From Candidatus Magasanikbacteria bacterium RIFCSPHIGHO2_01_FULL_41_23 (GTDB lineage: Bacteria; Patescibacteriota; Patescibacteriia; Magasanikbacterales; UBA922), in the NCBI GenBank assembly GCA_001782805.1, contig MFPT01000008.1:13162-77161 (forward strand): a stretch of 64,000 bases of DNA, in the 5' to 3' direction. A program made the position numbers and the translations under genes. Under the pieces are notes generated by a model that made no database searches, was not told the DNA's origin, and saw only the letters and a list, made by a program, of their open reading frames with translations. Shown piece after piece: positions 2,155 through 24,680 of the stretch; the stretch's first letter is position 1; the number at the start of each line of letters is the position of its first letter.

Positions 2155-2183
2155 TTGACAAAAGTTCTATTTTTTGGTATTCT
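2155..2183 (+). promoter_or_regulatory. Sigma70-type promoter with extended -10
   Basis: TTGACA (2155-2160), 17 nt, TATTCT (2178-2183) preceded by TGn; predicted start ~2189 coincides with the first base of a hairpin. Confidence 0.75.
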
Positions 2184-2282
2184 CACCAGTCAATTTAAAT
2201 GGTAAGTTGTGGGAAGAATCCTACCTTACCTATTGACGCCGCTCATTACAAATAATTTATCTGGAAAACAATCAGCAGAGCT

Positions 2283-2415
2283 TTCCTGGTGGCTAACAAG
2301 CAAAGAATTTTTTCTTTCTTTATTACCCACCAGGAAAACCACCCCATCAGGGGGCTTTGCCTCGACTTGGTCGGGACGAAGTTTACTTCATCCCGAAGGT
2401 CGGGGTGAGCTTCCT
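2283..2415 (+). ncRNA. Putative structured leader RNA motif, copy A (unknown family)
   Basis: TTCCTG..CAGGAA hairpin, ACCCC-N4-GGGG hairpin, long stem ending GGGGTGAGCTTCCT; same architecture and length as 4951-5082. Confidence 0.7.
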
Positions 2416-2701
2416 ATGTGGATACGAGGGTTACCTAAACATACGATTCGTCGTACTGGGTTTTCCCCTCGGCTTGGACTAGATCTGAACTTTTCTCACG
2501 CCAATACTTGTGGAGTGACCGGCATCCAGACATGAAGTTTGGATTCGCTACCGCGATTAACTCCCCGTTCCCACCGTGGAACAAGGGAATCGTGCAAGCG
2601 TTAAAGCTGTGAACAACAACAAGGAGTGATGAGAGCTCATAGAAGGTTTGAGTGGTGTTTCATTCAACGACGGGGCTTTCGAAAAGCCCCAGGAGTCACT
2701 C

Positions 2702-3442
2702 ATGAACTGCACCGCTGGACATCTCCTCCCGACCCCGACTCCCGCCTTCTGCCCGACCTGCGGGGTGGCCGTCGTCGCCCCCCCCCCGACCACCTTGACG
2801 GTGACCATCCCGGTCACTGTTCCCCCTGCCAACCTCACGTTCGGGGGGTTGACCCCCCCCCCGACCACCGGGACGACGGCGACCGCGGCGACCACGACCC
2901 CGACGGGCTTCTGCCCCGACTGGATCGTCCGCGGTCTGATCCTCCTGCTCCTTCTGGCCGTCGCCTATGGTCTGATCAAGACCGAGAACCACGCGACGAA
3001 GCAGGACGTGGCCGAGGTCGGGCTGACCACCAACGCCATCCTCGCGATCAGCGTGGAGGCGAGTGGAGCCAGCGTCGACGAGAACGGGACCTACATCGTC
3101 CCGCGTCTCGCGGGGAAGGCCGACCTCGCTGGTCTGGCGAAGAAGTCGGATCTCTCCGGTCTCGCGACCAGTTCGGCTCTGACGGCGCTCGGCAACGAGG
3201 TCGACGGCAACGAGGCGGCGCGAAAGGCCGACGCGAAGGCCTTCCGATCGGCGGTCTACCGCGCCTCGAAGCGGCACGCGACGGCTCTCGCCGCGCTTCC
3301 GCCGCCTGCCACGACCGACCTTTCCGGCCTCGCGACGAAGCAGGACGTGGCCGAGATTCGCGCGGCGATCGACGACGCCCGCGCCCAGGTCGTCGTGACG
3401 CCCGCCGCCCTCCCCCTGCCCGCCCTGCCCGAGGCGCCCTAA
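2702..3442 (+). CDS. High-GC membrane protein: N-terminal Zn-ribbon-like motif, P/T linker, one TM helix, ATKQD-type coiled-coil repeats
   Basis: AGGAG at 2691 six nt before ATG 2702 (in frame with ORF 2648..3442); CTAGH...CPTCG; GLILLLLLAVAYGLI; ATKQDVAE twice; strong GC3 bias in this frame. Confidence 0.8.
   Translation: MNCTAGHLLPTPTPAFCPTCGVAVVAPPPTTLTVTIPVTVPPANLTFGGLTPPPTTGTTATAATTTPTGFCPDWIVRGLILLLLLAVAYGLIKTENHATKQDVAEVGLTTNAILAISVEASGASVDENGTYIVPRLAGKADLAGLAKKSDLSGLATSSALTALGNEVDGNEAARKADAKAFRSAVYRASKRHATALAALPPPATTDLSGLATKQDVAEIRAAIDDARAQVVVTPAALPLPALPEAP
2992..3355 (+). repeat. 25-bp exact direct repeat (2992-3016 and 3331-3355) encoding ATKQDVAE
   Basis: cgcgacgaagcaggacgtggccgag read at both positions. 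Confidence 0.9.
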
Positions 3443-3717
3443 AGCGCAGGGCAACAAACCCCTCCAGATAAACGCCCACCCGACGGTCGTGCAGCGCAAT
3501 AGCGTAGCACGACCGTCCCTCAACCTTTCTTCATCAACCTAATTGGTGGAGAGCTATATGAGGCTACCAGTTCTTTAAAAAATTTTGCACACAGAAGAGT
3601 GATATTGACAGAACGCCATTTGGCGCAAGTTTAAATAGTAGTCTTCTGTGTGCGAATCAATCTACATTAACCGTAACCGCAACCGCCCCGTGGTCGGGGC
3701 AAGACTGGAGTTGAAGC

Positions 3718-4362
3718 GTGAAGGCGACTTTTTTTTCTTTGCTTTTTTTTCTTTTCCTCAACAACACCCTCAACCCCCGGCTCGCCGCCGGCCAGACGCC
3801 TCCGACCACGACCGTCAGCTGTCTCGGCTGCACGGTGCGGGTGCATCTGCCCCCTCCCGTCGCCCCCCTCCCGTCGCCGTTGCCTCGTGTCCACCTGTCG
3901 GTCGGCGCCAGTGGGGTTTACCTCACGGGCACCACGCTCGGGCAGTACGGATCCGGTTCCGGCGAAGCGAACGTTGAGTTCGTGTTCCCCCTCGGACGAG
4001 TGCGTTGGTTCGAGATTATCGGGCAAGCCTCGTTCGGCGGTGCCTCCGGTGTTCTCTCGGGCTCGGGATCGGTCGGTCTCGGATTCGTCCTCAACGGCGA
4101 CTCGGACATCCGACCGCTCGGCAGCACCCGCCTCTCGACCCTCTTCACCACCCGCGGCCGCGGAACCGGAGACTCCCAGGACTTGCTCACCCTCGGTGGC
4201 AAGCTCCAAATCAACGTCTCGCTCGGTACTACGGCAGGTGTCCAGTGGAATTACTTCCTCGCCTGCGAGGCAGGTAGTTCCATCTATAAGGACGCTGACG
4301 GTCGATCTCACAACGACGGCTGGTACGTCGCTCCCTCCACTGGCCTCCTCCTCCGCCTCTAG
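3718..4362 (+). CDS. High-GC secreted protein, probable small outer-membrane beta-barrel-like fold
   Basis: GGAG 7 nt before GTG; signal peptide MKATFFSLLFFLFL; alternating strands (VHLSVGASGVYL, ANVEFVF, GSVGLGFVL, KLQINVSL, AGVQWNYF, GLLLRL-end). Confidence 0.7.
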   Translation: MKATFFSLLFFLFLNNTLNPRLAAGQTPPTTTVSCLGCTVRVHLPPPVAPLPSPLPRVHLSVGASGVYLTGTTLGQYGSGSGEANVEFVFPLGRVRWFEIIGQASFGGASGVLSGSGSVGLGFVLNGDSDIRPLGSTRLSTLFTTRGRGTGDSQDLLTLGGKLQINVSLGTTAGVQWNYFLACEAGSSIYKDADGRSHNDGWYVAPSTGLLLRL

Positions 4363-4579
4363 CGCCCCCCCTACACCCCACCTTGTGCCCCCCCGCACCG
4401 TAAGAGATGGCATCGCAAGACGTCATCAATTCGGTCATCGGCACCCCCGCGCGTCGCAAGACCTCGGGATCCCTCTGGGTTAATGAGTTTGACTCGTTAA
4501 TCAAGAAGGATAATGTTCATTAAAACAAAATAAAAAAACAACCTTGTTATTTTCAAAGTTGTTTGATTTATTTATGTAG

Positions 4580-4652
4580 TGGACCGGACGGGAGTTGAAC
4601 CCGCGCCACTCCGTGTCAAGAGGAGCATGCTGACCGTTAACACTACCGACCC
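4580..4652 (-). tRNA. tRNA, most likely Val(GAC), with an atypical anticodon arm; CCA not encoded
   Basis: GGGTCGG/CCGGTCC acceptor stem, D-arm GTGT..GCAT, T-arm GCGGG-TTCAACT-CCCGT, 4-nt variable loop, anticodon arm CTCC-TCTTGACAC-GGAG; TATAAT upstream (4674-4679, minus strand). Confidence 0.8.
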
Positions 4653-4950
4653 ATAATCCACTACACAAATGAGATTATACTACAAAACTCTTCCGGATGG
4701 AAGAGTCGTAGTGACACGGAGTATGAACCGGCATTTGCCAGCTTGTCCTCTATGTAAGTTAGAATAACACGAGGGGAATTGATTGTCAAAATTGTCAATG
4801 TGTATAACTGTCGCCCGCGCTTTGTTTCTAACATTTAGAACCAGAGCACGCGTGATAACGCGATCGACTTGCTTTAAACTTGTTTATTCTGAGCATATCG
4901 AAGAGTCGAAGAGATCTTTACAACATAAGCAAATATTTTAATTAATACAA

Positions 4951-5082
4951 TTCCTGTGAAGCAAAATGCTGACTACAATAGTCATCAGCTTGCCTCACAG
5001 GAATAGCACCCCGCTTGGGGAGCGAACCCCGACTCGGGGGTGAAGTTCTGCTTTACTCCGGCTAGTCTGGGGTGAGCTTCCT
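4951..5082 (+). ncRNA. Putative structured leader RNA motif, copy B (unknown family)
   Basis: TTCCTGTGA..TCACAGGAA, ACCCC-GCTT-GGGG, long stem ending GGGGTGAGCTTCCT; compensatory differences relative to copy A. Confidence 0.7.
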
Positions 5083-5125
5083 GGCGGAAGGTATGTTCTG
5101 TTCTGTTTTTTTTCGGAGGTGTCTT

Positions 5126-6817
5126 ATGGCGAAGTTCGCCATCAACATCGTCGGCCTCTTGGCCGTTGCCCTCGTGGGGTGTATGCCTCACGTGGATTCC
5201 AACAACCCCAATCCCTCCTCGGTGGTGGTCAACACCGGGGACAACATCAGTCTGACCGTCGACCACGATGGCGACGGCTGGACCGACTTCAAGGACAAAG
5301 TGGAGGCCTGTCTGGCCACCACCTCGTCCAAGAAGGAGTACGACATGTGTCTCGACCAGTTCGAGGTCGCCCTCATGACGGGGGCGCTCAAGACCGGTGA
5401 CTGCGACGACGACAACGCGCTCGTTAAGCCGGGAGCGATCGAGGTGTGCGACGGCAAGGACAACAACTGTGTTGGCGGCGTAGACGAGGGATGCACGGAC
5501 GCATCCTGCGCCGACACCAACGCGTGTACCGACGACGACTTCGTCGTGGGCAAGGGGTGTGAAAACACCACCAAGTCCTGCGACGACGGCAACGTCTGCA
5601 CGACGGATTCGTGCAACCCCGCGACCGGCTGCACGACGACGCCGAACACGGTCATCTGCAACGACGGCGACGCGTGTACGGACGACAACGTCTGCTTTCA
5701 AGGCGCCTGCATCAGCGGCGCCGAGAAGGACTGCGACGACGGTAACGTCTGTACGACCGACGCGTGCAACCCCGCGACCGGCTGCACGACGACGCCGAAC
5801 ACGGCCACCTGCAACGACGGGAACGTCTGCACGACCGGCGACGTCTGCAAAGACAGCGCCTGTACGACAGGGCTGGTCGTCACGATCTGTGACGACAAGA
5901 ACCCGTGTACCACGGACTCGTGTGACCCGAAGATGGGTTGCAAAAACGTGGACACCGTCGACGGCTCGTGTTGCTTCGGCAACACAGGCAAGTACGGCGA
6001 TGCGTTCTGTGTCCCGTCCGAGCCGAAGCCTCCCTCCTCCCTCCCTCTTCCAACCGGTTACAAGTGGGGGTGCATGGGCGGCGCCACCGTGTCCTCTCCT
6101 GGCCACTGTACGAGTTGCAAGGAGGCGGACGACGACGGTGTCTGCGCGATCGGGGAGCTCTGCTCGAACGATCTCGACGACGACGGCGACGGACTCGTTG
6201 ATTGCGAGGACAGCGAGTGCGCGGCCAACACGGCGTGCAACCCGGTCTGTGCGACTAACGCCGACTGCGACGACGCCGATCCGACCACGGTTGACACCTG
6301 CACCCTCACCGGGTGCTGGCACGTCAAGCCGGTTCCTCCCGCCTGCACTCCGGCCTGCGCTGGCAAGACTTGCGGCGACGACGGCTGTGGCGGATTCTGC
6401 GGTGCATGTATCGGCGGGCAAATCTGCCAGCTCGGTGCGTGCGTCGCTCCACCCTCCACGTCTGAGTGCGTGGTCGACAACGACTGCGCGCCCGGCGGCC
6501 AGTACGCCAAGTGCTGGCAGGGGAAGTGTGTCCAGGTCTTGCCGGGTTCCTGCGGACCTTTCTCTATCTCGGTGATCGCACCGAGTGCAAAGAAAGTGGA
6601 TCTGGAATGGTACAAGCAGAGTGGTCCAGCCTCCACGACGGAGTCGGTGAGCACGGGTACCTTCAACAGCCACACCGGCGAGTGCTCGGTCGTGGCCTGG
6701 GGGTTCGTCGCCCCCAACGGGTGCACGTGCGAGTCCCTCTACGGGACGTCGCCCTGCGGTCAGCAACCTGCCTCTCCTGGGGTCTACGGATGCTGGCATA
6801 ACAAGCCGGCTCAGTAG
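5126..6817 (+). CDS. High-GC Cys-rich repeat lipoprotein (MopE-like metal-binding motif, Dictyostelium/myxobacterial CxDGNxCTxDxC repeats)
   Basis: GGAGGT at 5115-5120, ATG 5126; lipobox LVGC; GDCDDDNALVKPGAIEVCDGKDNNC; repeated CDDGNVCTTDSC; CGDDGCGG motif. Confidence 0.9.
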   Translation: MAKFAINIVGLLAVALVGCMPHVDSNNPNPSSVVVNTGDNISLTVDHDGDGWTDFKDKVEACLATTSSKKEYDMCLDQFEVALMTGALKTGDCDDDNALVKPGAIEVCDGKDNNCVGGVDEGCTDASCADTNACTDDDFVVGKGCENTTKSCDDGNVCTTDSCNPATGCTTTPNTVICNDGDACTDDNVCFQGACISGAEKDCDDGNVCTTDACNPATGCTTTPNTATCNDGNVCTTGDVCKDSACTTGLVVTICDDKNPCTTDSCDPKMGCKNVDTVDGSCCFGNTGKYGDAFCVPSEPKPPSSLPLPTGYKWGCMGGATVSSPGHCTSCKEADDDGVCAIGELCSNDLDDDGDGLVDCEDSECAANTACNPVCATNADCDDADPTTVDTCTLTGCWHVKPVPPACTPACAGKTCGDDGCGGFCGACIGGQICQLGACVAPPSTSECVVDNDCAPGGQYAKCWQGKCVQVLPGSCGPFSISVIAPSAKKVDLEWYKQSGPASTTESVSTGTFNSHTGECSVVAWGFVAPNGCTCESLYGTSPCGQQPASPGVYGCWHNKPAQ

Positions 6818-7109
6818 GTTCCCTCCCACCTCACGATCTCGTACGCAAGTACTTGAGATCACCACGCCACCTGTCGTGAAGAAAACAACAGGCAATCCAC
6901 ATTTTTTATTTTTCTATTAAGGAAAGTAGAAAGTGCAGATTCAAATAATCCTCTTTACAATTTAGGTTTTAACTAGGCCAGTGATTATAACAGTAATAAT
7001 TTAGTGTTTTAATCGCTGGCTTAGTTTTGTTTTACCGCATGAGGGATTTCGTAGCTGGCATTCCTTACACCAAAATGCGGTTCAACTGCAAACGAGCAAG
7101 GAGCTCCAA

Positions 7110-9149
7110 ATGCAGCGTTCTATGTTTCTTATCGTGACCCTCTGGGTCTTGGCCCTCGTTGGCTGTGCTGACGAGAACATCATCAACCTCGTGGCCCCGG
7201 ACAACGACCACGACAACTACACGAGCCTGACGGAGGAACAGGCTCACGAGATGGGTTACGCGTCAGTGGACGCTGCCCTCAAGTTCGGCGACTGTGCCGA
7301 TGCCAACCCGGCCATCAACCCGGGTGCGGCGGAGGTGTGCGACGGCAAGGACAACGACTGCGACGGCAAGACCGATGGGCAGGACGACAATCTCGTCGCC
7401 TGCAACGACGGTAGTGCCTGCACCACCGACGCCTGCACGAGCGGTCAGTGCGTGAGCACGGCCGTGACTTGCAACGACAACTCGGCCTGCACCACGGACT
7501 CTTGCGACCCGGCGACGGGCTGCACGAACACCGCGGTGAACTGCAACGACGGCAACGTGTGTACGACGGACGCGTGCGATCTCGTGCTGGGATGCACGCA
7601 TTCGAACAACACGGCGCAATGCGACGACAGCAACGTGTGCACGACTGAGGTGTGCAACTCGCTGACTGGCGGTTGCACCTACGCGGCCAACAACTGCAAC
7701 GACGGCAACGTGTGTACGACGGACGCGTGCGATCTCGTGCTGGGATGCACGACGACGCCGAACAACACGGCGCAGTGCGATGACGACGATGCGTGCACGA
7801 TAGAGGACGCCTGTTTTCAGGGGTTCTGCATCGGCGGCGCCCCGGCACAGTGCGACGACGGCAACGTCTGCTTCGACGATGCATGCAACGACGGAGCTTG
7901 TGTTCAGGGTTCGTCGATCGCGTGCGATGACGGCAACGCCTGTACGACGGACTCGTGCGATCCCGCGCTGGGATGCACGACCGCGGCAGTCAACTGCAAC
8001 GACAGCAACGTGTGCACGACCGACTCCTGCGACACGGACACGGGTTGTGTCAACACGAACAACGCGTTGACCTGTACCGATTCAAACGCCTGCACCACCG
8101 ACGACTTCTGTCTCGGCGGTGCTTGCGTGTCCGGCGCAACCACCAACTGCAACGACAGTTCGGCCTGCACCACGGATTCGTGCGATCCCGCGCTGGGATG
8201 CATGAACACCGCGGTGGACTGCAACGACGGCAACGTCTGCACGACCGACGCCTGTGACGCGGCGACCGGTTGCAAGCACACCGACAACACGGCGCAGTGC
8301 GACGATGGGAACATGTGCACCGTTGACACCTGCGACGGGGTGGACGGGTGCGAAAACGCACCAATGCCCGACTGCTGTGTCGGGGACGCCATGTGCGCCG
8401 GCTCTGAGCCGGCTGGGCTTACGGCTGACTTCCGGTGGGGATGTACGGTCAACTCCGGTCCCCCGACCGGAACCTGCGTGTCCTGCTTGGACTCGGACGG
8501 GGATGGCTGGTGCGACTCGCCTACGGAGTCGGACTGCGACAACACGTTCGACGAGGACGGCGACGGACTCGTGGACTGCGCTGACGCGGACTGCGACAAC
8601 GATGCGGCCTGTGTCGTCCCCTGTGTGCCCGATTGTACGGGCATGGAGTGCGGCGACGATGGTTGTGGCGGTTCGTGCGGATCGTGCGCGGACGGCGACA
8701 AGTGCAACGCAACTTTCCAGTGTGAGGAGGAGCCTCGGCTCTCGATCACCTGGACCGCTCCCATGAGCGGTGTGCCCCAGAACGCGGGCGGGCAGTTGGT
8801 CCTCCTGGCCAAGTGCTACGACGCGGTTGGGGGAACGGTTGTGTCGTGGGGCGTCAAGGCCTACGGCCCCACCGCCTCCACCTCTCTCTCATGGACGGCT
8901 GACACCTGGTTCGAGCCAGCCGACTGCATCGCCCAAGTCGTGGAAGTGGTCGGCGGCAAGACCGTCTGGTATGCGAACGGACTCTACGGAGTCCTGTCGT
9001 ACATCTGGGATGGTCTCGCCGTCACCACTGTCAAGGGCAACGGCACGTCGGGCTGGCCCTTCTTCCCAGACACGGACAGCGACGGTGACTGCACGCTCGA
9101 TGGCGCCGACGCGTGCCCGTTCGATGGCTACGACACCTGCGTCCCGTAG
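7110..9149 (+). CDS. High-GC Cys-rich repeat lipoprotein, paralog of 5126..6817
   Basis: AAGGAG at 7098-7103; lipobox LVGC; GDCADANPAINPGAAEVCDGKDNDC; more than a dozen CNDGNxCTTDxC units; DGDGLVDC and CGDDGCGG motifs. Confidence 0.9.
   Translation: MQRSMFLIVTLWVLALVGCADENIINLVAPDNDHDNYTSLTEEQAHEMGYASVDAALKFGDCADANPAINPGAAEVCDGKDNDCDGKTDGQDDNLVACNDGSACTTDACTSGQCVSTAVTCNDNSACTTDSCDPATGCTNTAVNCNDGNVCTTDACDLVLGCTHSNNTAQCDDSNVCTTEVCNSLTGGCTYAANNCNDGNVCTTDACDLVLGCTTTPNNTAQCDDDDACTIEDACFQGFCIGGAPAQCDDGNVCFDDACNDGACVQGSSIACDDGNACTTDSCDPALGCTTAAVNCNDSNVCTTDSCDTDTGCVNTNNALTCTDSNACTTDDFCLGGACVSGATTNCNDSSACTTDSCDPALGCMNTAVDCNDGNVCTTDACDAATGCKHTDNTAQCDDGNMCTVDTCDGVDGCENAPMPDCCVGDAMCAGSEPAGLTADFRWGCTVNSGPPTGTCVSCLDSDGDGWCDSPTESDCDNTFDEDGDGLVDCADADCDNDAACVVPCVPDCTGMECGDDGCGGSCGSCADGDKCNATFQCEEEPRLSITWTAPMSGVPQNAGGQLVLLAKCYDAVGGTVVSWGVKAYGPTASTSLSWTADTWFEPADCIAQVVEVVGGKTVWYANGLYGVLSYIWDGLAVTTVKGNGTSGWPFFPDTDSDGDCTLDGADACPFDGYDTCVP
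7539..7751 (+). repeat. 60-bp exact intragenic direct repeat (7539-7598 and 7692-7751), period 153 nt
   Basis: Identical aactgcaacgacggcaac...ctgggatgcacg; a similar ~42-bp repeat with the same 153-nt period occurs at 5610/5763. Confidence 0.9.
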
Positions 9150-9304
9150 ACGCGCCCTCCCACCCGCTCTTTCCTTCTCCACCGCCCTCCTGAGGCATGC
9201 GGTGGCACACGATAGTGTGAGCCTCTCCCTTTGCGCAAGCCAAGGGACTCTCATCATTTTCTTCATCTGGAATGGAGAAACGTGACTAGAGTCATGTTTG
9301 ACGT

Positions 9305-9351
9305 CACACCGAAATTATAACTTGACATATTATAATTTCGGTGTGTATACT
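9305..9351 (+). promoter_or_regulatory. Sigma70 promoter embedded in a perfect 16-bp inverted repeat (probable operator)
   Basis: CACACCGAAATTATAA (9305-9320) / TTATAATTTCGGTGTG (9330-9345) around TTGACA (9322-9327); TATACT at 9346-9351. Confidence 0.8.
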
Positions 9352-9359
9352 TATCCTGT

Positions 9360-10595
9360 ATGGTTATAAAAATACGACAATTATCCCAAAAATTGGTACA
9401 GGCGGCACGATCCTTTCCGGCGGTTGTTATCACTGGTCCGCGCCAATCCGGCAAGACGACACTGGTGCGTAATTTGTTCAAAAAAACGCACAACTATGTT
9501 AACTTGGAAGATCCTGATACGCGCGCCCGTGCCCTCTCTGATCCACGGCTATTTTTTGCATCCTTCAATTCGCCGCGTCTTATCCTTGACGAGATACAGT
9601 ATGTACCGCAACTTTTATCGTATGTTAAATCTGCTATTGATGAACACCGTACTTCCGGGCGTTTCATCATAACTGGATCACAGCAATTTAGCCTGATGCA
9701 AGGAGTGAGTGAATCATTGGCCGGCAGAGCCGCTATCCTGACTTTATTGCCGTTTTCGTATGGTGAAAGGATTGGACAAGGAGAAAAATTATTACCTTTC
9801 ACTAATTGGACAAACCGTCTGGCTCAAAAAAAAATAAATACCAGTCCGCATCCCTCGATTGCTTCGCTGTTGGTGCGAGGATCATATCCAACACCAACTC
9901 GCTCTTCTGTGGATTATTCTTTATGGTACGGTTCGTATTTGGCTACGTACCTTGAACGGGACATTCGTAATCTGTCTCAGGTGGGTGATCTTCAGCAATT
10001 TGAACATTTTTTGCGCTTATTGGCGAGCCGTACCGGACAGATACTGGATTTGGCCGGCTTAGCACGTGATTTAGGAATTTCTCAGCCAACTGCGAAACGC
10101 TGGTTGTCTATTCTTGAAACTGGCTACCAAGTTTTACTCCTCTATCCTTATTTCAAAAATATAGGTAAGCAGGTAGTAAAGCGCCCTAAAGTTTTTATCA
10201 CTGACACTGGTCTCGCTTGTTACTTACTAGGGATAAATGATCCTAAAACTTTAACGAACCATCCACAATTTGGCTCGCTGTTTGAAACCTTTGTAGTGAC
10301 CGACATCTGGAAGAGATCTTTGCACAGCGGTATCAAGCCGCGTTTATATTATTTTAGAAGTCACGATGATTTGGAAGTTGATCTGGTGATTGAAGACGGT
10401 AAGGGGCTGCACTGTGTTGAAATTAAAAGTTCTATGACTGTAAAACCCCAACACGCCTCGAGTTTGGTTCGTTTTATCCGTACGCCAACAATTGCTCGAT
10501 ATATTCAATCGTCATCCTTAATATCTTTATCTACTACCGGCCCGATTTCTGCCGGAATTGTGAATTATCATTGGTCAGATTTCTTCTCTATCTAA
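9360..10595 (+). CDS. AAA+ ATPase, AAA_14 + DUF4143 family
   Basis: Walker A GPRQSGKT, Walker B LILDEIQ, TGSQ, DTGL, C-terminal EVDLVIE..EIK nuclease-like motif. Confidence 0.92.
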   Translation: MVIKIRQLSQKLVQAARSFPAVVITGPRQSGKTTLVRNLFKKTHNYVNLEDPDTRARALSDPRLFFASFNSPRLILDEIQYVPQLLSYVKSAIDEHRTSGRFIITGSQQFSLMQGVSESLAGRAAILTLLPFSYGERIGQGEKLLPFTNWTNRLAQKKINTSPHPSIASLLVRGSYPTPTRSSVDYSLWYGSYLATYLERDIRNLSQVGDLQQFEHFLRLLASRTGQILDLAGLARDLGISQPTAKRWLSILETGYQVLLLYPYFKNIGKQVVKRPKVFITDTGLACYLLGINDPKTLTNHPQFGSLFETFVVTDIWKRSLHSGIKPRLYYFRSHDDLEVDLVIEDGKGLHCVEIKSSMTVKPQHASSLVRFIRTPTIARYIQSSSLISLSTTGPISAGIVNYHWSDFFSI

Positions 10596-23696: not shown

Positions 23697-24680
23697 TTAG
23701 CCGTTGTTTCCATCCGGGTCGCAGGTGTCCCCGAAACCCAAACCATCAGCGTCGTTATCAATTTGCGTCGGATTGAATTTCCAGGCGCAATTGTCAACAG
23801 CGTCAGGAATGCCGTCGTTGTCGTCGTCTATGTCGATATTGTTTGGAACTCCGTCGTTGTCCAAATCCGTGTCACATCCGCCGAAGATTCCATCTTGGTC
23901 ATTGTCTCCCTTATTGTACACACATTCGGATTTCGAGGGATTGCACACTCCTATGTAACAGGGGATCGACTCAGGAATGACGCAAACGTACGGACTTCCG
24001 GCGCATTTACCAGACGTACAGACATCGTTTTCTGTACACCAATTACCATCGTCACATAAAGCGACGTTGGCCACAAACGAGCAACCAATCTTTGGATCAC
24101 AGGCATCGTTAGTGCAGGAGTTTTTGTCATCGCAGTCAAGATCCACACACTTGGGAAGTTCTATTACTTCAGGTGCACTAATCGAACCATGGTCTGATAT
24201 TTGATTAGTGTCATCTGAAATATCGTTTGACCACGTTTTAATGTCATTGTCGTAGGTATCCACAATTTCATTTTCAGACGTGGTCGTGGTATCAACATTA
24301 AGGACATCATTAATCACATCGCTCGTGTCCGAGACATTAATGTCCATCGACGTTTCAAAATTTTCCGAAACATCGGCATCGTTGTAGGATCCATCTGCAG
24401 TATCATTCGGCCTGAACACTTCGTCCGTCATCGTAACGATGTCTTTCTGATCCGTATCCTGCTGCGTCACGTCTTGATACGTCGTCTCGGTTTGAGACAT
24501 CACGTCGGGCAACACGCTGGACACATCGTCCGTAACATCGCTCTGGAACACGAAAGTCGCCTGCGCTTCTTTGCCTACATCAGCAGACATTTTTCGTTGG
24601 AAAGAGATTTCATCGATATTTCTGTCAAACACGCATCCGGCTAGAAAAAAAATAACGAACAAGACAATAAAACTTCTCAT
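23697..24680 (-). CDS. Lipoprotein with Asp/Thr linker, Cys-rich repeats and thrombospondin type-3-like Ca-binding repeats
   Basis: Lipobox LAGC; CDDKNSCTNDACDPKIGC, CDDGNWCTENDVC; DNDGIPDAVDNC..NPTQIDND; AGGTGG upstream of ATG. Confidence 0.85.
   Translation of the reverse strand: MRSFIVLFVIFFLAGCVFDRNIDEISFQRKMSADVGKEAQATFVFQSDVTDDVSSVLPDVMSQTETTYQDVTQQDTDQKDIVTMTDEVFRPNDTADGSYNDADVSENFETSMDINVSDTSDVINDVLNVDTTTTSENEIVDTYDNDIKTWSNDISDDTNQISDHGSISAPEVIELPKCVDLDCDDKNSCTNDACDPKIGCSFVANVALCDDGNWCTENDVCTSGKCAGSPYVCVIPESIPCYIGVCNPSKSECVYNKGDNDQDGIFGGCDTDLDNDGVPNNIDIDDDNDGIPDAVDNCAWKFNPTQIDNDADGLGFGDTCDPDGNNG

Follow-up and report, generated by a model that had tools for sequence, protein, structure and literature searches.

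Phage morons encode host envelope proteins, such as lom and bor of lambda, and Agrobacterium T-DNA and other type IV-delivered nucleic acids carry bacterial genes formatted for expression by another cell. Horizontally acquired islands are described by the amelioration model, and in Shine-Dalgarno (SD)-poor Bacteroidia the anti-SD sequence is sequestered and the SD marks a few ribosomal genes. Here, four GC-rich genes (open reading frames ORF1 to ORF4, Table 1) are analysed in a 64,000-nucleotide stretch, hereafter the window, of Candidatus Magasanikbacteria bacterium RIFCSPHIGHO2_01_FULL_41_23 (genome G000, contig C8, positions 13162-77161), whose genome size and lack of LpxC, BamA, and Rho are compatible with a member of the Candidate Phyla Radiation (CPR). 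The genes belong to a class that maintains a second gene format and includes a barrel without a known insertase. There is about an even chance (roughly 50%) that the four are a long-resident second class of CPR genes formatted for translation by the ribosomes of another cell, a host.

By analogy, the class would work most like the phage morons for host envelope proteins. Like morons, the class genes would be a parasite's self-contained promoter-SD-ORF units and would supply an eight-stranded barrel and lipoproteins for host assembly, but the units here lie in a cellular chromosome with its own ribosomes, occupy a fixed slot, and form no prophage (no phage match was obtained). T-DNA shares the formatting for foreign expression, and G000 has a TraG/VirB4-like ATPase (C21:21427-22338, E 2.4e-29); however, the recipient would be a bacterium and the class genes are scattered over the chromosome. 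Genomic islands resemble the region in atypical composition, variable slot content, and a tRNA inside, but in the region composition shifts gene by gene without decay, and no integrase, att repeat, or donor was found. As in SD-poor Bacteroidia, G000 has kept its anti-SD while its core genes are SD-less (a bS21 match in the analysis was weak and under the cut-off). In contrast to the Bacteroidia, the genes with an SD here are GC-rich accessory ones, and the SD remains in genomes that have lost the anti-SD.

Composition and translation signals

The G000 assembly comprises 992 kb in 24 contigs at ~41% GC and is rated 100% complete. ORF1 to ORF4 form its largest GC-rich block, with a GC content at third codon positions (GC3) of 0.76-0.89 against a genome median of 0.37 (870 crude ORF calls). 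This agrees with the initial annotation, a reading of the letters alone which had claimed four unusually GC-rich genes, each led by an SD and set among mostly SD-less genes. The SD matches span 5, 4, 7, and 6 nt, whereas an SD of at least 4 nt is found at 3/78 unambiguous low-GC3 ATG starts of G000, below the 13% at internal ATGs. The core genes of G000 avoid the SD. Genome-wide, an SD of at least 4 nt precedes 20/25 called genes with a GC3 of at least 0.52 vs. 172/757 with a GC3 below 0.47, a count that takes the best of several candidate starts from a simple caller that leaves out ORF2 and counts a small number of shadow frames.

A return to AT-rich composition between every gene had also been claimed. 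This holds for local stretches of 100-200 nt, which fall to 26-34% GC, but not for entire spacers, which are 40-50% GC. Compared with synonymous shuffles, the coding sequences of ORF1 (z -2.2), ORF3 (-4.0/-2.1), and ORF4 (-2.3/-1.2) fold well relative to a core mean of -0.54 (22 genes), and that of ORF2 folds no better than its shuffles (z -0.1). T-rich runs at 3729-3757, in a gene that is GC-rich elsewhere, encode the hydrophobic N-terminus of ORF2 and may be a site of slippage.

An assembly chimera is rejected, as contigs of four runs bridge each AT/GC junction and relatives of ORF4 occur in 35/61 genomes, a one-contig genome included. The bridging contigs cover X5 1500-2788, X6 3411-3837, X6 4127-5639, X5 6452-7368, and X5 8708-10500 (part of a contig of 22.6 kb). 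None of these pieces extends over the full stretch, and the four study codes may represent one campaign.

Table 1. Features of the window (positions in nucleotides from its first letter)
Feature	Position	Strand	Details
Sigma70-type promoter of ORF1	2155-2183	+	TTGACA, 17 nt, TG-TATTCT; promoter scan
boxA-like motif, ORF1 leader	2241-2251	+	GCTCATTACAA
Two-hairpin leader module, copy 1, ORF1 leader	2275-2430	+	ends GGGGTGAGCTTCCT
ORF1	2702-3442	+	246 aa; GC 0.71; GC3 0.89; SD AGGAG (5 nt)
Structured trailer of ORF1	3443-3560	+	z -6.6
Structured leader of ORF2	3580-3717	+	holds TTGACA 3605 in hairpin
ORF2	3718-4362	+	214 aa; GC 0.64; GC3 0.76; SD GGAG (4 nt)
C-rich structured trailer of ORF2	4363-4520	+	z -4.2
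tRNA called Ser(TGA)	4579-4652	-	short variable arm, G3:U70, A73; own promoter 4789-4761
boxA-like motif, ORF3 leader	4913-4923	+	GATCTTTACAA
Two-hairpin leader module, copy 2, ORF3 leader	4943-5100	+	
ORF3	5126-6817	+	563 aa; GC 0.64; GC3 0.83; SD GGAGGTG (7 nt)
Trailer of ORF3	6818-6910	+	CCCTCCCACC at 6821
boxA-like motif, ORF4 leader	6950-6961	+	CCTCTTTACAAT
Two-hairpin leader of ORF4	6960-7109	+	z -6.2
ORF4	7110-9149	+	679 aa; GC 0.64; GC3 0.83; SD AAGGAG (6 nt)
Trailer of ORF4	9150-9265	+	CCCTCCCACC at 9155
Fifth class gene	23697-24680	-	327 aa Cys-rich lipoprotein (LAGC); GC3 0.51; related to ORF3

Maintenance of the format among relatives

From 28 of the 35 genomes with ORF4 relatives, 40 stretches chosen around the matches were examined. 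A slot upstream of a glycosyltransferase (surface-polysaccharide) cluster holds same-format genes of four families in nine relatives (G001, G005, G015, G027, G031, G038, G044, G057, and G059), and its content changes between genomes. When Cys-rich genes were chosen by Cys content alone, an SD of at least 4 nt was present before 45/47 complete genes vs. 150/298 others, counted at the best start within 60 codons and against a comparison set that includes further class genes. The GC3 of the Cys-rich genes exceeds that of the core in 27/27 genomes and is uncorrelated with it (rho 0.14). It does correlate with the GC3 of a genome's other SD-led genes (rho 0.64, n 17; partial r 0.57), for which co-location may be a confounder. 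At fourfold sites of class genes C and G are both raised (0.38 C, 0.34 G).

The choice of C vs. G in fourfold boxes of the Cys-rich genes tracks that of their own core (24 genomes, mean r 0.40, permutation p 1e-4), also after removal of the overall skew (p 2e-4), which argues for long residence. Syntenic pairs, all of them genes of relatives and none from G000, extend this observation. In G047/G053, 64% of 61 silent sites differ, yet GC at fourfold sites (GC4) is 0.69/0.97 vs. 0.08-0.18/0.32-0.43 in the neighbours. The GC4 of the G044/G058 pairs is 0.84/0.69 and 0.76/0.58, and that of G041/G055 only 0.37-0.48. Silent sites that are saturated yet GC-rich, combined with a codon choice that follows the core, indicate that the format is maintained.

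Ordinary amelioration in the relatives and a near-identical high-GC donor had both been named as findings that would count against host-directed expression. The relatives have instead kept their GC, and no such donor was found, though an unsampled one may exist. The absence of an integrase or att repeat is borne out, as the flanking genes are an orphan and an AAA_14/DUF4143 gene, no att-type repeat is present, and the 3' end of the tRNA at 4579-4652 is single-copy. A recent genomic island is therefore rejected, with no integrase or att repeat, no donor, and no amelioration. One locus among the relatives, L076 (G004:C3:47000-66999), is GC-rich as one broad block of ~19 kb that includes a Cys-rich gene of 1959 aa; it departs from the gene-by-gene pattern and was excluded from several tallies.

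Promoters, leaders, and trailers

All four genes have structured leaders and trailers, but a complete promoter was found for ORF1 only. This promoter, already proposed at 2155, is a good one with an added TG. In G001 and G005, similar promoter-like stretches gave matches upstream of genes of the class, and a BLAST of the ORF1 leader against 107 genomes matched mainly the promoter. Two other proposed elements did not survive. TTGACA at 3605 is a lone hexamer inside a hairpin, and TACAAT at 6956, suggested as a -10 element, is another lone hexamer that forms the end of a boxA-like motif; neither was called by the promoter scan.

The hairpin-rich untranslated regions are confirmed, since all fold far better than shuffles (leaders of ORF1 to ORF4 z -6.3, -3.9, -6.6, and -6.2; trailers -6.6, -4.2, -3.2, and -2.9). 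The shared 3' motif is not, as the exact CCCTCCCACC follows ORF3 and ORF4 only and is not above chance in the window: with at most one mismatch it occurs 3 times vs. 1.39 expected, and 15/100 shuffles score as high. Trailers are nonetheless C-rich in general (34% C vs. 19%).

The leaders of ORF1 and ORF3 have a two-hairpin module in common. A model built from both copies and searched in 100 other genomes returned only a third copy, in G027 (E 1.2e-5), in the same slot before a Cys-rich lipoprotein. The leaders of ORF1, ORF3, and ORF4 also hold the motif TC[TA]TT(T)ACA, first spotted by eye and then counted. It lies upstream of 16/71 class genes vs. 2/201 others, with antisense matches at 1/71, and in held-out loci it precedes 7/37 class genes vs. 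1/123 others. The motif is boxA-like; the boxA consensus given in PMC13753749 is UGCUCUUUAACA in E. coli and AUGAUCUUUGAAA in B. subtilis. The 16S leader of G000 holds the boxA-like variant GTCCATTACAA, and NusB is present in 38/41 genomes. The 16S (C3:98660-101010) and 23S (C4 near 107800) genes of G000 are unlinked, and the 16S trailer ends in a terminator.

The class resembles rrn boxA antitermination (NusB-S10-NusA-NusG) in having the motif in 3/4 leaders and in the 16S leader, with NusB present. It differs in that the motif precedes protein genes, that Rho was found in 0/61 genomes by family search, and that a leader-trailer helix is missing. A 16S-like processing helix for class genes is rejected: none was found for the four window genes, and 5/71 class genes beat all controls with 3.4 expected, while the 16S control helix scores 53 vs. 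22-27. In an Rfam scan only the tRNA reached the gathering score.

The predicted barrel and the Cys-rich lipoproteins

ORF2 consists of a hydrophobic N-terminus and a predicted eight-stranded outer-membrane-type beta-barrel (residues 54-214). It has 4 relatives among 1.84e9 representatives, with signal-like N-termini in 4/4. An AlphaFold2 (AF2) model using the four relatives has eight strands at a predicted local distance difference test (pLDDT) score of 86.5, and an AF2 model from 2 sequences (pLDDT 38.9) was not usable. The best structural matches are NspA/OmpW, and also OmpA (Foldseek E 5e-5; VIA (NspA) Z 16.8, root-mean-square deviation 2.7 over 142). An independent Atlas model gives template modelling (TM) scores of 0.55-0.62 to outer-membrane protein clusters, and by eye most of the eight strands show alternating hydrophobic, lipid-facing residues. 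NspA, OmpW, OmpA, and OprF share the fold, but ORF2 differs from them in its 7-13% identity, its lack of a Pfam match, its C-terminal Leu, and its presence in an order without BamA. Distant relatives occur in G004 and G113 (2/200 other genomes), and the DNA context of ORF2 relatives was not found in metagenome contigs.

The model predicts that ORF2 is a genuine barrel of the outer-membrane type, in an order where BamA was not found. The check for bamA that had been suggested returned Omp85/BamA in 0/151 genomes of the order, with 7/14 controls positive, and TamB, LolA, and LpxC were not found in G000, the one genome covered by family search for them. Among relatives, a signal peptide together with a terminal aromatic beta-signal occurs in 4/72 GC-rich SD-led proteins vs. 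0/241 low-GC3 proteins. Pfam placed none of 12 same-class proteins of relatives over the cut-off, with one OMP_b-brl match at E 0.044.

ORF1 is an orphan, with no Pfam or NCBIfam family, no Atlas match, and a protein search that returns itself alone. Its sequence contains an N-terminal CxxC, a Pro/Thr linker, one hydrophobic segment, and an ATKQDVA repeat.

ORF3 is a lipoprotein (lipobox LVGC) with MopE-type and Dicty_CTDC Cys repeats, and its paralog ORF4 is a lipoprotein with the same lipobox and ten Dicty_CTDC repeats. The view that the Cys-rich motifs are typical of Myxococcota stands in part, as this phylum is among the carriers, but only ORF3 and ORF4 are Cys-rich and the repeats are also common to Phycisphaerae, Binatia, and Acidobacteria. 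In a search of the genome collection with ORF4, which kept 76 loci from 117 stretches, the best non-CPR matches come from these four groups at 34-53% best-segment identity, mainly in repeats; its non-repeat part gave short-piece matches only and no full-length relative among the best 120 of 522 matches. The fifth class gene sits in a second slot beside a response regulator, where G002, G003, and G004 also have GC-rich Cys lipoproteins. Gly at lipobox position -3 occurs in 0/28 class genes vs. 5/5 credible native lipoproteins, the latter selected by eye among 15 calls that the class tally had not counted (7 others were class genes and 3 implausible).

Proposed translation by a host and alternative explanations

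The class combines an own-type promoter, a boxA-like leader, folded untranslated regions and coding sequences, a strong SD, high GC3, canonical lipoboxes, and a barrel. The question of which ribosomes read it can be approached in genomes without an anti-SD, as PMC9297842 reports that only 48% of Parcubacteria have one. Nine genomes have 16S tails without an anti-SD, and parts of six were examined. High-GC3 genes are SD-led in G365 (466 kb; at least 4 nt, 16/18 vs. 124/361), G363 (120 kb; at least 5 nt, 6/7 vs. 12/80), and G579 (400 kb, GC3 0.54; 2/2, with 31/359 other genes having at least 6 nt). Pooled over the anti-SD-less genomes, an SD of at least 5 nt is found at 21/31 vs. 8.2 expected from shuffled upstream DNA, and SD spacing peaks at 6 nt. 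The SDs of G365 pair with its own tail no better than background (-2.3 vs. -2.7 kcal/mol), and in G365 and G579 the 16S and SD-led GC-rich genes lie on one contig. One family of SD-led genes, that of G365:C1:107280-107732, occurs in 25/251 genomes. The presence of SD-led GC-rich genes in anti-SD-less CPR favours foreign ribosomes.

In the proposed mechanism, contact with a GC-rich diderm host would lead to rRNA-like transcription of the units through boxA-NusB/S10, a mode that suits an RNA not translated while it is made. This RNA, or its DNA template, would reach host ribosomes. Host Sec, Lgt/LspA/Lol, and the machinery that assembles beta-barrels (BAM) would next install the barrel and Cys-rich lipoproteins in the envelope of the host. 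There they may offer the symbiont a docking site or a channel, or remodel the surface for it. Translation on host ribosomes would jointly explain the SD without an anti-SD, a GC3 shared within a genome and free of the core, the differing lipobox, and the BAM-type cargo. boxA fits either untranslated symbiont RNA or DNA read by a Rho-containing host, so that either RNA or DNA may move. A more specific form is tentative and, on present evidence, somewhat unlikely: the class would be transcribed like rRNA, by boxA antitermination and uncoupled from translation, and its folded transcripts exported into a bacterial host as mRNA effectors, from which host ribosomes, Sec, Lol, and BAM would build barrels, lipoproteins, and enzymes. 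GC3, SD, and lipobox would then be a readout of host identity.

Several observations weigh against translation by a host. The 16S of G000 has an intact anti-SD, as do 21 of the 22 listed 16S tails of its taxonomic class, and lspA and lgt are present in 60/61 and 56/61 genomes, respectively, including G000. The possibility that lgt, lspA, or the anti-SD is missing from G000, which had been put forward as a check, is thus rejected, and G000 could itself read and process ORF3 and ORF4. Among the anti-SD-less genomes, 2/4 high-GC3 calls of G569 are mis-started ribosomal genes, the parts examined of G379 (0/148) and G434 (0/83) hold no high-GC3 gene, and the SD-led genes of G365 and G363 may be a recent gain from anti-SD-positive CPR. 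The boxA-like motif is not enriched in anti-SD-less genomes and precedes only 3/20 class genes of G000. Class codon choice between C and G follows the CPR's own core and is unlike that of Myxococcota homologs for Leu and Gly, so that the suggested comparison yields nothing specifically Myxococcota-like. GC3 varies within single genomes (G015 0.56-0.79; G005 0.70-0.97), and family f6, with a GC3 of only 0.32-0.54, could be read as ameliorated. Because the genomes are related to one another, every p value is inflated. Lastly, ORF2 ends in GLLLRL, with Leu in place of the canonical aromatic residue of the beta-signal. Host-directed expression, as first proposed in the initial annotation, accordingly stands in part: the four refutation tests approached all failed to refute it, but the genome's own anti-SD, lgt, and lspA and a codon choice that is not specifically Myxococcota-like count on the other side.

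The strongest rival, itself rather improbable, is that CPR ribosomes read the class through reserved SD-anti-SD pairing as a contact or dormancy programme. High GC would provide stable, storable mRNA. The symbiont would carry the lipoproteins on itself as adhesins or mimics of the host and would transfer the barrel, in protein form, to the periplasm of the host. The intact anti-SD and lgt/lspA are consistent with this, as is the folding of the ORF1, ORF3, and ORF4 coding sequences beyond synonymous shuffles. Raised C and G with a choice that tracks the core is what pairing selection, and not a host tRNA set, would give, and reading by the symbiont also accounts for the lack of a host codon signature. 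However, it sits poorly with SD-led genes in anti-SD-less genomes and with a lipobox unlike that of native lipoproteins, and the class includes cytoplasmic functions that are duplicate or secretion-independent (a second prolyl-tRNA synthetase (ProRS), a response regulator). CsrA as an alternative reader of GGA was not found in G000, G001, G365, or G579, and a CsrA regulon is rejected with CsrA in 1/5 genomes (G363). That one, G363:C6:32362-32517, is a CsrA homolog in a CPR genome without a 16S anti-SD.

Repeated capture of host genes, the other option raised in the initial annotation, is weakened and now appears quite unlikely. Here the slot would keep acquiring genes from GC-rich diderm neighbours, and the GC, SD, and barrel would be largely unselected donor leftovers. 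PMC12455944 describes horizontal transfer as common in Patescibacteria, which counts for capture. The repeat modules are common to Myxococcota, Phycisphaerae, Binatia, and Acidobacteria, and slot content differs, with the four genes of G000 lacking a clean ortholog in the 40 stretches. Against capture, the best non-CPR matches are 34-53% identical and mostly in repeats, ORF2 has 4 relatives, and ORF1 none. C/G choice follows that of the genome in which the genes reside, saturated syntenic pairs have stayed rich in GC, and the leaders carry a CPR-type boxA and a CPR-only RNA module.

An outer layer or non-Omp85 insertase so far unrecognised in CPR, with the genes as ordinary envelope genes under separate control, would suit the way barrel-like and lipoprotein genes recur at one fixed position next to the surface-polysaccharide cluster of nine relatives, but is very unlikely, as BamA, TamB, LolA, and LpxC were not found, the Cys-rich family is in only 35/61 genomes and the barrels are non-orthologous, unlike housekeeping envelope genes, the GC3, SD, and lipobox differences are left unexplained, and described CPR cells are monoderm (PMC8871954).

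Further class genes and neighbouring elements

G000 holds further SD-led genes. A second ProRS-like gene (C4:21834-23534, GC3 0.72, 7-nt SD) is 40-46% identical to the copy on C19 and adjoins an SD-led oxidoreductase (C4:20516-21829), both named from sequence. Three SD-led high-GC3 genes resemble those for an RNA polymerase alpha-CTD-like protein (C17:802-1140), a response regulator (C2:169769-170137), and a 2OG-Fe(II) oxygenase (C2:118453-119361), and these are candidates for proteins that act inside the host.

The tRNA between ORF2 and ORF3, which the initial annotation does not mention, is probably a separate element. Its G3:U70 and A73 form what we take to be an alanine-type acceptor. Three more short-arm tRNAs occur in G000 (C21:10503-10577, C21:46635-46711, and C3:84076-84151). 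All four combine G3:U70 and A73 with anticodons for Ser(TGA) or Cys(GCA). At a distance of 70-130 nt from each (upstream for two, downstream for two) lies a 10-12-nt sequence complementary to its anticodon arm, which gives them the look of a regulatory or non-ribosomal module. Downstream of ORF4, the AAA_14/DUF4143 gene has next to no leader (TTGACA 9322, TATACT ending 9351, ATG 9360; region 9305-9360) and lies under a perfect 16-bp inverted repeat that is likely to be an operator.

Significance

A literature search, with supplements and subscription papers outside its reach, returned no description of the gene class, and the accessible portions of PMC6851277, PMC10783764, PMC13059738, and PMC13293708 contain nothing relevant. 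On the weaker reading, too, two gene dialects are kept up within a genome of 1 Mb, an SD-less AT-rich core and an SD-led, boxA-led, GC-rich, folded accessory class, together with barrels without BAM, and no known system explains this. If translation by a host is true, a cellular bacterium would program the ribosomes of another bacterium in a phage-like manner. The class would then be a ready effector list in every CPR genome, and its composition would predict the type of host, here a GC-rich diderm. The finding thus bears on how CPR bacteria, a large share of bacterial diversity, act on their hosts.

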